DNA of 61,964 nucleotides, the filler included. It is 13 parts of 13 records of this genome, joined end to end, with 100 filler letters (N's around TTAATTAATTAA, not from the genome) between each part and the next. Parts side by side here need not be neighbours in the genome. Positions count along the whole stretch, not along the records: positions 11,829 to 16,045 come from SRR7504441_10221; 12 more parts are not named here. One strand, written 5' to 3'. Made by a program: the position numbers and the translations under genes. How positions within the stretch are numbered: position 1 is the stretch's first letter; every line of letters begins with the position of its first letter. Under the pieces are notes generated by a model. The model had not been told where the DNA came from. It did not search any database and saw only the letters and a program-made list of their open reading frames with translations. Shown here in pieces: positions 11,199-16,045 of this stretch.

Positions 11199-12119
11199 GT
11201 GCCGCATGGTGTTGATAGAGTTGTGGTTGATGTTCACTTGTGACGTCTCGACTTGATCGTGAGGTTTCAATAGTAGCAGGGCCGGCTTGCGACCATTAGA
11301 TGACGTGAATGATCTGGATTGGAGACTGGCATTTCTGGCTAGCTAGGTTATTAATGATTGATTTTAATAGTACTGACATTTATACTGATTTTCATTGGGT
11401 CTTGGGAATATTATAATTAGGGGAATATCGTACGAGTACCCCAAAGCCGTAGCACACCAGCTCTTGCTCTAGGAATTCCTTACATGTACCGTACATGTAT
11501 AGTACATGTAAATGATGTAATACATGCACATTGCACAATACATGTGCATGTTCAGCCAGTTCAGGATCCAGCTAGCTAGCTAGCTGTAGCACGACCGGTG
11601 AGGAACGCGTTGAGGCTCTTCTCGGCGGACGCCTTGACCTGCTTCCGGCTGGAGCTGCTGCCACCCAGCTCGATCATGGGCAGCGGTTGCTCCATCGCCG
11701 GCCGCGGTATCCGCGTCACGCGGCCGAGNNNNNNNNNNNNNNNNNNNNNNNNNNNNNNNNNNNNNNNNNNNNTTAATTAATTAANNNNNNNNNNNNNNNN
11801 NNNNNNNNNNNNNNNNNNNNNNNNNNNNAATATGCGTAAGCTAGCAGCAAGGGTTAATTAAGAGGGCCCGCGCCCCCACCATAAGGCGGATACACAAAGA
11901 AATCGGGTTATGTGAGCCTTTAATAAGGCCCCGATTCTCTAACAAATGTACTTATATGCCTATACATACAAAGAATTGGCTTTATTACAGGATGTACGCA
12001 TAAAGCAATGTTTGAAGTCCACTCTTCGGTTGGTACACTGACTCTTACTATTCACTAGCTTGCACATGCACAAAATTGAGTCTTCCGAGGTGCGTGCACG
12101 GTTGAACATGACACTGAGA

Positions 12120-15100
12120 CTAAACATCAGCCGCCTGCTCAGCCGCATCAGGCTCGTCGCCCAGGATGAGATCAGCAGCTTGCTCCGGGGTGGCGTTTGG
12201 CTCCTGGCTGCTCGTTGGAGTGGGGCTCTCAAGCCAATCAGTGACTTGCAACACTTGTTTCACCCGTTGCTTAATAGCCTGGGTGCTTGCTGGAGACAAA
12301 GACGCCTGAGCCGGCGATCTGGAGTGATCCAACTCCTGGCAAGACTCTGCTACGCCTTGCTCAGCCACGGGCCCGAGTAGCGGCTCTATAGCTGCGATGA
12401 TGTAGTCGGTTATACCGGCCGAAGTGGGGCACTCAGCCAAGATGTCTGGAGGCAGACAAACCGCCGTGCCCAGCTGCTCTTGCAGCGAGAAGACCAATTC
12501 ACGGGCCTGCTCTGCCCCCACGCCGCTCTCGGCTAGCAAGTCGTCCCTCCCGATGCTGAGCTCTGTCGCCCCGACGGCGTAGTGCACGAACCTGAGGACC
12601 ATTCTGTCCACACCATCCCGAACCTCCCGCGGCTCGAGGCCCTTTAAACTCGAGACGAACGATTCCTCCGAGAATGCCGGCTGAGCTGGCGATAGCGTGG
12701 CCTGAGGCGGCGTCCTGCCACCGAATCAAGCGAGGTCACAGTGCGGACTCACGACGCGGACCGCTGGCTCCTTGGGGAAGTCCGCTCAACTTCTTCGTTC
12801 GGAGACACCTGGTCGATCGCGTCCCTGACCCACAGAAAGTACATATGTGCGGGGATGCATCGAAGATCAGCGTCGAGCACCATTTGGTCGGCCAACTCCT
12901 CGGACCGACCGGATGCCGGATGCAACCGGAACTCGTCACGGTCCAGCCCGTCCGGATCCACAATAAACAGCTGGGCAAATTCAACCTGTCCAGCCTGCTC
13001 AGCTGGCATCGCCGGCGTATGCCGCGCCTGTGAGACTAACTGTTCACATTCAGCGTGGCAAGTGAGGAACATCACTAGCGACGGCATGTCTTCGGCCCCG
13101 ACCATCTGCACAGCTCGCTCGGGGGTACCACGGGCGGGGGGGCACCTCGCCAGGGGGCAGGAATGTATTGATGAGGTCGGCCGCCTGCAGGATGGATTCT
13201 GTCCAAAGCCTCACTTTCTGCACGGGCGTAGTGCATTTGACCATCGCCAGCACCTGCGCCAGCCGTCACGCTGCATCTGCATCGGTCTGACCATCTCAAG
13301 TGCTGGAGAGAGCAACCCAGCAAACTGCTCGAGCGTGTTGAACCGGTCTGGGTGCAGCTTATGCAGCATCTTGGCCCAACTCGTCTGTCCTTGCTACTGA
13401 GTCCACGCACGGGCGGGTGGCAAACCTCCCAGAATTCTGCCAACCTATTGCCGCGGAACTCTGCCAACCTATTGCAGTCCCAGTTCTGCTGAAGTTGGAT
13501 CACCCGCTGCTGCTTTGAAATCCCGCGCAGCAGCAGCTGAGACCAGGTGAGTGCCGGCTCTGGGAGGCCCCAGCTGCCATCTGGCGACCTGGCCAGCGCT
13601 CGGGCGGCCCTACGGTGCGTCGCACTTAAACTTAGCAAAGTCGACCTCGTCAGAGTCAGACCCGTTTATCTCGCCCTCAGCTGGAGCCGCCTCCTCTTCT
13701 CCTTCGGCTGGAGCTCCCCCACTGACACCAGCAGCGCTCAGCCCGCGCGGCTTGGATGCAGCCACCGCTCATCGCTAGGCCGCCTCCGGAATTTCCGTGG
13801 CCGAGCCATTATTGGGCCGCCCGTTATGTCGTGTGTGATTGGCAGGTAGCCCTTGTGCCCGTCCCAGGTGCTCGCGATCCGCACATAGCTGCATCACCGC
13901 CACTGAGTGGCATATTTGCGGCGGCATGCTCACTCATTGTTGTCCAAGCCTTTCACTAGTACCCCAGGCACCTTCATCCCATGCTTCGGCCCATGGCTCT
14001 CCAGGCTCGCTGGCCGGTCCTGCCCCCCACTCAGCCCGAGCCAGTGCAACTGCTACGTAGAACAGCGGCGAGGCTCGGATCGCAACCCCAGATTCGGCCA
14101 CCACCTCGAACATTTGGACAGCCTGCACCATTCAGACCGGCCGAGCCTGGGGCTCACCCGTCGGGGCTGAGCAAGCCAGGCCGGCGCTTGCTCATCGAAC
14201 ACGCAGGACTCGACCAGCTGGCGCAGCTGGTATTGCTGCAGCAGCGACATATATTGCCAGATACCACTGCCCCGCGCTCACTCACTGCACTCGACCGCAG
14301 CGCACCGTGGCTCGACATTCTCCGGCGGGTCTGTGCGGCAAAACAGCTCGTTAGCGATCGCACCCACGAAGGCAGTGACGTTCTTGGCGGCTCGGTTGTA
14401 TTCCTCTGGCGAGATGCTGTCGCAATCGATTACCGCAATCAGCCTGCTGTGGAACCACGCGAGCAAATCTCTCCCAACCTGTCGCGCGCGCTCAGGCGGC
14501 CCGAGCCAGGCCTGACCTCCCCCTGCGGGGCCGGCTGCGATTTGATGAAGTTCCGGGTGTACTGGACCAGGTCAGAGGGCAGTGCGTCCACCGCGTCGTC
14601 AAGGTAGGTTTCCCTATCAAACGCCCTGGCAAACTGCCTCGCGAGCTGGTTCTCCTCGCGGCAAAGTGTGACACACACGTTGGCAAAGTGTGACAGCTCC
14701 CTCTCCCCGTCGTCCTGCGCGCTCCGGAAGCAGAGCTCCGGAGTGGCTTCCGGGTCGGCGTGCGCTTGGACGGGGCACTGGAGGAAGATGGAGCATAGCC
14801 GGTCCTTGCGCATTAAGAGCTTGACGTTGGACACGTGTTGCCCGAGGCACAGACATCCTTTGAGCCGGGCCTGCGGCTGCTCGTCCGAGAAGTGGAAGAG
14901 CCAGCTGGCGGCTCCGGCGACTGCATACCCTGTGAAGTCGTTCTGCTTAGCTATCAGGATGTATCGGCGCTGCCACTGGTTGCGCCAACCCCAGGGCAGC
15001 TCCAGGTGGCCTGACCAGAGCACGGTGGCCGAGAGCGAGATGTTGATCCGGGTGATGTTTCCCGAGGGGCAACGGGCCCAGGTGTTGTCCGCCTGCAGCC

Positions 15101-15137
15101 CCCCCAGCGAGGCCCAGAAAGCGGCCACGTCAACCAT
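12120..15137 (-). CDS. PH + SH3-like + VPS9 (Rab5-family GEF) protein with C-terminal acyl-carrier-protein-like domain
   Basis: About 12 short introns restore one frame. PH: SGHLELPWGWRNQWQRRYILI...LKGCLCL. SH3-like: FEVVAESGVAIRASP...HKGYLPI. VPS9: TPVQKVRLW...MVGAEDMPSLVMFL...LVSQVEFAQLF. ACP-like: DDLLAESGVGAEQARELVFSLQEQLG...LPPDILAECPT. Confidence 0.75.
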
Positions 15138-15615
15138 CTTGGCCTCCCCCGCGGCCGAGCTTCGGTCAACCGACTGAGCCCGCCCGCCGGTGGCTTAGCG
15201 CTGGCCTGTATGGGGCCGATCCACAACCCGCGCGCTGCTGATGCTTAGGCCCTTAGTGACGCGCCATCCAACAGCACTTTTCTGTTGCCCTCACGTTGCT
15301 GCGATTTCCAAGCAGACAGACTTGACAGCCTGAGGGATTTCCAACTGAAGTGAAGGTGCAGTGCAGACGGTAAGGAGACGAGGATTTCCACGATTTCCAA
15401 GCAGACGATCATCTGCAACTATGAGTGGATCTCCAAATTAAAGCTGAGATTCGATGAGGTTCCCATAGGAACCCACAGCGAGTGCTAGGAGCGTTAGGAG
15501 GAAGAAGAAGGCCTTCGAACTTCTCCCGCAAGACTTTGCCCCAAGACACCTACAAGACACCTTCGAAGCGCATAGATGAAATTCGATTAATTTAACTACT
15601 TGTAGTCCTAGAAAT

Positions 15616-16045
15616 TCAGTCCGAATCTTCCTCGTCCGCCTCGCTATCGGTAGAACTATCCGAATCCTCATCGCTAGTCTCTACATGTGGGTCGGCCTCC
15701 TTCTCCTCCTCTTCATCGGGAGGCGGCGGAGGCGGCTGCTCGAGCTCTTCTTTGGCTACCTTGTTTTGCAGCTGCGGCTGCGCCCTCTTCTTCTGCGCAC
15801 TCTTCTTCAGCTGGGTCTGCGCCTTCCTCGTCTGCCTTTGCCACCTTGGCCTGGCCATCTTCCCCTAACCTCCTTTCCCTTAGAGCCTCCATCTCCGCAT
15901 GCTTCAGAACCGCCTCCTCAGCGAGTGTTTTCTGCCCTCCCCGCGGTACCTGCGTCACTTCCTCAACTTGCTCCTTCTTCTGCGTCTTCTTCGGCTGCGC
16001 TGTCTTCTTCTGCTCCTTCTTCTGCGTCTTCTTCTGCGTCTTCTT
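15616..16045 (-). CDS. 3' part of a low-complexity K/Q/E/D-rich hypothetical protein (5' cut by contig end)
   Basis: KKTQ repeats, polyP and acidic tail; two frames can be joined by a 34-nt GT-AG intron. Confidence 0.45.

Follow-up and report, generated by a model that had tools for sequence, protein, structure and literature searches.

A VPS9-family gene of an uncultured marine protist ends in a polyketide-synthase-like carrier domain without its attachment serine

Introduction

This study concerns a gene on the minus strand (12120..15137) of a 61,964-nucleotide stretch of DNA, filler included (hereafter, the window), which appears to combine a guanine nucleotide exchange factor (GEF) of the VPS9 family with an acyl carrier protein (ACP) domain. 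On the GEF side, the closest described systems are Rabex-5, Vps9p and AtVps9a. In the portions of the Rabex-5 literature consulted, Asp313 and Tyr354 are given as key residues, Asp313 being the catalytic one (PMC4379102), and the protein is described as autoregulated through its C-terminal region (PMC6855807). The main text of a eukaryote-wide survey of Vps9 architectures lists as added domains the Zn finger, CUE, PDZ, PX, P-loop NTPase, RasGAP, CAP-Gly, PH and kelch, without a carrier domain; Table S1 of the survey may name further architectures (Herman et al. 2018, PMC6032885). The gene described here resembles these exchange factors in its helical-bundle plus VPS9 fold, as modelled for a relative (P0020), in an acidic pair with which the putative catalytic helix opens, in a tyrosine of the last helix and in a regulatory-looking extension C-terminal to the core. 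However, its sequence similarity to them is at or below the Pfam threshold, it lacks a zinc finger, a CUE domain and a Rabaptin-binding helix, its N-terminus is different and possibly PH-like, and its C-terminus is a carrier-protein domain. The proteins nearest to it, namely Telonema subtile P0035 (EukProt EP00656, 838 aa), P0020, P0029-P0034 and P0036, belong to the same family and share its domain order as far as VPS9 extends. P0035 and the metagenomic relatives differ in having low-complexity C-terminal tails without an ACP.

On the carrier side, the domain resembles the ACPs of modular type I polyketide synthases (PKSs), such as those for mycolactone, DEBS and vicenistatin (PF00550), with which it shares the predicted four-helix fold (Z up to 14.9), and it is 30-41% identical to protist and metagenomic PKS ACPs, the linker before the domain included. 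Unlike all of these, it reads G-A-E in place of D-S-L and is fused to a putative membrane-traffic regulator. The prosthetic arm is what defines a carrier protein, and phosphopantetheinyl transferases recognise the Asp and Leu around the attachment Ser. Inactive ACP domains, i.e., carriers that are not (usefully) phosphopantetheinylated, have been reported within PKS or polyunsaturated fatty acid (PUFA) synthase lines, in the parts of that literature consulted, and the serine-less or pseudo-ACPs found there were all within PKSs. In contrast to these domains of biosynthetic megasynthases, the ACP described here lies in a protein without an acyl-transfer context. The mitochondrial ACP of respiratory complex I is a parallel in that it uses the carrier fold as an interaction module outside fatty acid synthesis. 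The complex I ACP retains its Ser, and the acyl-phosphopantetheine arm contributes to binding, whereas, judging from the residues at the attachment site, no such arm could exist in the domain reported here.

We consider it probable that the gene specifies an expressed VPS9 GEF carrying a captured, serine-less, PKS-derived ACP, which is kept as a partner-binding or autoregulatory module.

Results and Discussion

The Terminal Exon Matches the ACP Domains of Modular Type I PKSs

A preliminary interpretation of this locus, made from the letters alone (the sequence-only reading), had described the last exon as ACP-like, and both homology searches and structure prediction agree with it. The 201-aa terminal open reading frame (ORF; 12725-12120, minus strand), compared by phmmer with 1.84 billion representative proteins, gave 19 matches at E<=1e-3, the best with an E-value of 7.6e-17 and 41% identity. 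All 19 come from metagenomic sources and all 19 carry the Pfam PP-binding domain (PF00550), with the matched stretches lying within or adjoining the PP-binding regions. The matching proteins are fragments of modular type I PKSs with KS, KR, ECH (enoyl-CoA hydratase) or HMGS domains, often with ACPs in tandem. A hidden Markov model (HMM) built from 33 homologous ACP domains, with the query left out, scored residues 670-766 (the ACP domain, 12381..12671, minus strand) at 74.2 bits, compared to 7.8 bits for the highest-scoring of 1000 shuffled last-exon proteins.

The domain was modelled as a 117-residue query by AlphaFold2 with an alignment of its homologues (A1), giving a pLDDT of 84.4, a pTM of 0.76 and predicted helices at residues 19-38, 58-72, 82-85 and 89-104. 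Helix II of the model begins at Ala58, which is the position of the attachment Ser. In a Foldseek search of the PDB, the top 50 matches listed were all carrier proteins, with the mycolactone PKS ACP being the best (E 2.7e-3, rmsd 2.4 Å), and a VIA-align comparison with the loading ACP of the vicenistatin PKS gave a Z of 14.9 and an rmsd of 1.7 Å over 91 residues. A phmmer search of the PDB sequences with the last ORF found no ACP chain. By these sequence comparisons, the last exon is homologous to the ACP domains of modular type I PKSs, and it is predicted to adopt the four-helix carrier fold.

The fold matches listed for the ACP model include the complex I entry 7b93_T. They also include carrier-protein-like chains in the Ycf2/Orf2971-FtsHi motor complexes of Chlamydomonas (Z ~11), a further instance of an ACP fold within a non-biosynthetic assembly.

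The Phosphopantetheine Attachment Site Is Replaced

The sequence-only reading had also claimed that the G-x-D-S-L site is replaced by G-V-G-A-E, which is exactly what we find at 12510..12524 (minus strand), with an Ala codon, GCA, at 12515-12513 in the position of the phosphopantetheine Ser. This column holds Ser in 33 of the 33 homologous domains, 32 of which read G-(V/L/I/A)-D-S, the 33rd being cut off just before the Ser, and the other 12 of 12 rows of alignment A1 read D-S-L. In the window, both the flanking Asp and the flanking Leu have been replaced along with the Ser, and the family-invariant residues beside the lost motif, E-S-G-V before it and G and L-P after it, are kept. The Ala codon is covered by contigs of four other sequencing runs, for which no different letter is listed; it is no private assembly error.

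Since Ala occupies the attachment position, the domain is an ACP homologue that is not to be filed as a functional carrier. With the Ser as well as its Asp and Leu neighbours gone, the domain would not be converted to the holo form and hence would carry no acyl group. One could nevertheless suppose that it is still a carrier, either modified at another residue or binding an acyl or CoA ligand non-covalently, and that it informs the GEF of lipid or polyketide status. The fold is kept and there is still a Ser four residues upstream, in E-S-G-V, as such a proposal would have it. However, Asp, Ser and Leu have all been replaced, and the Ser of E-S-G-V is invariant in true ACPs too, where it is not the attachment site since true ACPs use the Ser of D-S-L. 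We therefore regard continued carrier function as very unlikely.

The VPS9 and ACP Exons Are Joined in One Transcript

The window is a string of 13 contigs separated by 12 spacers (44 N, 12 bases and 44 N each) at sites spanning 7072-57546, and so neighbourhood across the spacer sites is not to be assumed. The gene lies wholly inside one piece (11829-16045), and parts of it also occur in runs of marine or seawater origin, both metagenomes and metatranscriptomes. The composition of the window from short assembled contigs, together with the fact that no single DNA contig of another run spans the whole gene, could suggest that the fusion is an artefact, i.e., that the contig is chimeric or that the ACP exon is part of a distinct adjacent gene and no fusion protein is made. 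Against this, one RNA contig each of two runs from different studies, X2 (801 nt) and X3 (335 nt, from a polyA metatranscriptome), skips the last intron (intron 12, 12715..12752, minus strand), which has GT..AG ends on the strand of the gene. The two contigs start within the last VPS9 exon (at 12859 and 12844), cross the spliced junction and traverse the ACP, and that of X2 extends to 12021 in the 3′ untranslated region (UTR). The junction between exons 12 and 13 keeps the frame (...RSQRSAS|TPPQ...).

As RNA contigs of two studies join the VPS9 exon to the ACP exon, the fusion is transcribed and is no assembly artefact. The artefactual explanation is largely excluded by these contigs, and we consider it extremely unlikely. 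A separate transcription of the ACP exon, which the sequence-only reading had named as the outcome that would speak against a fusion, is likewise not borne out. That reading had placed an intron of ~47 nt near 12715-12760; the intron is there, but its length is 38 nt (GTGAGT...CAG). In the runs compared, there are depth gaps over exons 1-7, which are uninformative on the expression of these exons.

Relatives Support a VPS9 Domain Upstream of the ACP

The region that precedes the last intron (12753..13548, minus strand, approximately residues 444-655, exons 8-12) had been assigned to VPS9 on motifs, and this assignment is supported through its relatives. The Pfam VPS9 model (PF02204) matches eight of the 11 relatives scanned, with E-values from 5.2e-6 to 0.031 and scores of 27.2 bits for P0032, 26.2 for P0029, 23.6 for P0031, 23.0 for P0020, 22.0 for P0036, 19.6 for P0033, 18.8 for P0043 and 15.1 for P0035. 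The gathering cut-off of 27 bits is thus reached by P0032 alone, and no match was obtained with this model in P0030, P0034 and P0045.

P0020, the nearest of the complete relatives and 57-87% identical, exon by exon, to the VPS9 exons of the window, was used for structure prediction. Its AlphaFold2 model has a mean pLDDT of 60 and is good over residues 1-140. When the model was searched by Foldseek against 350,542 chains, the top seven matches were all VPS9 structures (E 0.09-0.7), namely those of Rabex-5 (2ot3, 1txu, 4q9u, 4n3z) and AtVps9a (2efc, 2efh, 4g01). VIA-align superposed P0020 on these seven structures with Z of 10.7-12.6 and rmsd of 3.3-4.0 Å over 145-161 residues, compared to a Z of 3.2 for the next fold.

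The acidic motif G-A-E-D, noted in the sequence-only reading, is present at residues 554-557 (13088..13099, minus strand), where the predicted catalytic helix begins. Throughout the family, its fourth position is Asp without exception and its third is either Glu or Asp (G109 and D112 of P0020 being invariant). The helix that it starts corresponds by position to the catalytic helix, and either of the two acidic residues may be the counterpart of Asp313 of Rabex-5. The Tyr of the last helix (M-Y-F-L-W-V) is kept in six of the seven sequences that cover it, the model of the window included. In summary, the relatives and the predicted fold support the view that the gene encodes a VPS9-family GEF for Rab5-type GTPases, the activity being a prediction.

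The Carrier Domain Appears to Be a Lineage-Specific Acquisition

Homology to the full-length Telonema protein P0035 ends at residue 655, which is the exon 12/13 junction, and P0035 continues with a tail of 211 residues that holds no ACP. None of 18 VPS9-family proteins matched the ACP HMM, nor did any of the eight related metagenome loci found with the VPS9 family alignment, just three of which extend for >300 nt after the match, most of the contigs being too short to show an ACP. Conversely, VPS9 was found in none of the 19 ACP matches. Searching metagenome contigs with the ACP exon returned no related loci, and a search among longer proteins for homologues of the last ORF found none, hence no fused relative. 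There are no other ACP-like frames in the window, and no catalytic domains of a PKS or fatty acid synthase (FAS) were found in the gene or elsewhere in the window.

Since homology stops at the last intron and none of the 18 relatives has an ACP, the sequences look like a lineage-specific capture of a terminal exon. In such an event, an ancestral low-complexity C-terminal tail would have been replaced by a terminal exon captured from a modular type I PKS. The gene itself is real and expressed, and comes from an uncultured marine protist whose nearest named relative is Telonema subtile.

The sequence-only reading knew of no described protein with this architecture, and we have found none either: no database protein with both VPS9 and PP-binding appeared among the 19 ACP matches and 18 VPS9 relatives, and a full-text search of the literature found no protein with VPS9 and an acyl carrier domain. 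What is new is the domain combination, the parts themselves being known; the combination is well supported and, among the proteins and loci compared, confined to one lineage.

Of the two Telonema subtile isoforms, P0035 (838 aa) is full length. P0030 (564 aa) breaks off within the VPS9 domain and closes with a short tail of unrelated sequence, which probably reflects intron retention or mis-splicing of its transcript.

A Retained Module or a Passenger

We next consider what the serine-less domain may do. Most likely, the VPS9 core promotes GDP release from a Rab5-type GTPase, and the carrier domain would be retained as a compact module of four helices, the second of which is acidic (A-E-Q-A-R-E-L-V-F-S-L-Q-E-Q). 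Appended to the GEF, the dead ACP would then serve in partner binding or autoregulation, placed like the autoregulatory C-terminal region of Rabex-5. The predicted intact fold, the synonymous variants in the exon (four of five) and the replacement of a Telonema-type tail by this exon argue in favour of such a co-opted interaction module, and a regulatory or partner-binding role is, in our view, the most likely one.

The main rival is that the domain is a neutral passenger, i.e., a recent and functionless capture of a PKS exon, tolerated at the C-terminus and now decaying, with the loss of D-S-L as the first sign. Its occurrence in one lineage only (none of the 18 relatives and none of the eight related loci having an ACP), the destruction of the most conserved motif of the family and the failure of the Pfam PP-binding model to detect the domain any longer would all be expected from decay. 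However, the exon has an uninterrupted reading frame, its fold is confidently predicted (pLDDT of 84), and the family-invariant residues by the lost motif (E-S-G-V and, further on, L-P) are kept. The nearest PKS ACP found is 41% identical, which implies either a long divergence without breakage or a source that has not been sampled. Eight coding positions differ between the window and contigs of other runs. Seven of these differences are synonymous, and in the last exon four of the five variants are synonymous, the exception being L681H; the counts are low, and the contigs behind them are of low depth. As they stand, the variants fit purifying selection rather than decay. Taken together, we judge the passenger explanation unlikely, and favour a retained regulatory or partner-binding module.

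Several points weigh against this favoured explanation. Besides the short reach of the related loci and the small number of variants given above, a Pfam search of ten unspliced ORF pieces and of the trimmed exons found no family, VPS9 included, at E<=10, and the PP-binding model (PF00550) in particular did not match the pieces of the window even at this threshold. The ACP model leans toward the carrier fold because the rows of its alignment are true ACPs. The VPS9 fold was examined on the relative P0020 instead of the window protein, confidence is low in the C-terminal half of the P0020 model, and phmmer searches of the PDB sequences with P0020, P0029, P0032 and a family profile (A2) found no VPS9 chain. 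Finally, RNA confirmation is limited to intron 12 among the 12 introns, and intron 6 (29 nt) is the least certain junction.

A bolder proposal is that the dead ACP serves as a decoy or docking handle for ACP-binding enzymes (a PKS ketosynthase, an acyltransferase or a phosphopantetheinyl transferase), coupling the activation of Rab5-type endosomes to polyketide or lipid synthesis. We see this as a long shot. If it were true, the decoy could recruit a megasynthase, or vesicles laden with its product, to Rab5-positive membranes, or could switch the GEF in accordance with the occupancy of the ACP-binding enzymes.

A membrane-traffic regulator that keeps and expresses a carrier fold lacking its arm, apparently under purifying selection, would be a clean natural case of exaptation, with a biosynthetic domain turned into a plain protein module, and an ACP with G-A-E would offer a testable handle on what ACP surfaces bind besides cargo. 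The gene also suggests that exon capture from the giant PKS genes of protists can seed unrelated genes. For Rab biology, the combination is one that the main text of the published survey of Vps9 architectures does not include.

Gene Model and N-Terminal Regions

The whole coding region (12120..15137, minus strand) was modelled with the guidance of relatives (P0020, P0029-P0034, including the Telonema subtile transcript protein P0030, and P0035) as 13 exons and 12 GT-AG introns, with 852 codons plus a stop. The start ATG at 15137 is the first in-frame ATG past an upstream stop, and the stop codon is TAG at 12122-12120. The introns are, in order, 38, 39, 35, 37, 45, 29, 37, 41, 38, 40, 42 and 38 nt long, with intron 1 at 14516-14479; four of them (13425-13385, 13291-13254, 13145-13106 and 13036-12995) lie inside the VPS9 region. 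The unspliced ORF pieces of the gene switch frame repeatedly. Automatic intron models, which were chosen for the fewest or shortest introns, were dropped as implausible, and the homologue-guided model was used instead. Residues 5-655 of this model align with residues 7-627 of P0035 in a single BLASTP alignment at 50.3% identity, and the model is co-linear with the Telonema subtile transcripts P0030 and P0035 as well as with P0020 and P0029. The single co-linear alignment to P0035 supports all of the junctions, fine detail excepted.

The sequence-only reading had further proposed PH and SH3-like motifs upstream of VPS9, and these labels remain unproven. Exon 1 (14517..15137, minus strand, residues 1-207), an N-terminal region that aligns with the N-terminus of P0030 and P0035, is possibly PH-like: in a language-model atlas, PH-family clusters were nearest to it (0.83-0.88, where values below 0.9 are at the level of a lead). 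Pfam gave no match at E<=10 for exon 1 and no PH match for P0030 and P0035. The middle region (exons 4-6, 13766..14122, minus strand, approximately residues 302-392) is conserved with P0030, P0035 and P0036. For the equivalent part of P0030, the nearest atlas clusters were unnamed ones and SH3_3, also at the level of a lead (0.82-0.83), and Pfam gave no SH3 match for the middle region.

At the other end, the ACP domain is followed by an acidic, Ser/Pro-rich C-terminal tail and the stop codon (12120..12380, minus strand, residues 767-852), as seen from the translation and from the coverage by the X2 RNA contig.

Other Observations on the Gene and Its Surroundings

The introns between 12715 and 14516 (minus strand) are all very short (29-45 nt) with GT-AG ends, and there is about one per 250 nt of gene. 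Intron 11 (12995-13036, minus strand, 42 nt) contains no in-frame stop, so that its retention would add 14 residues within the VPS9 domain with the frame kept; these residues are absent from the relatives, and no RNA contig lies over this intron. In exon 8, a 20-nt direct repeat with a 24-nt spacing (13432-13475, 95% identical) duplicates the peptide N-R-L-A-E-F; compared with the Telonema protein, it resembles a small tandem duplication that preserved the frame. Upstream of the gene, a Lys/Glu-rich low-complexity ORF lies on the minus strand at 15616-16045. A (CTT)n-like stretch at 15918-16045 has a summed contig depth of 3293.7 in run X8, a peak that most likely comes from unrelated low-complexity transcripts.

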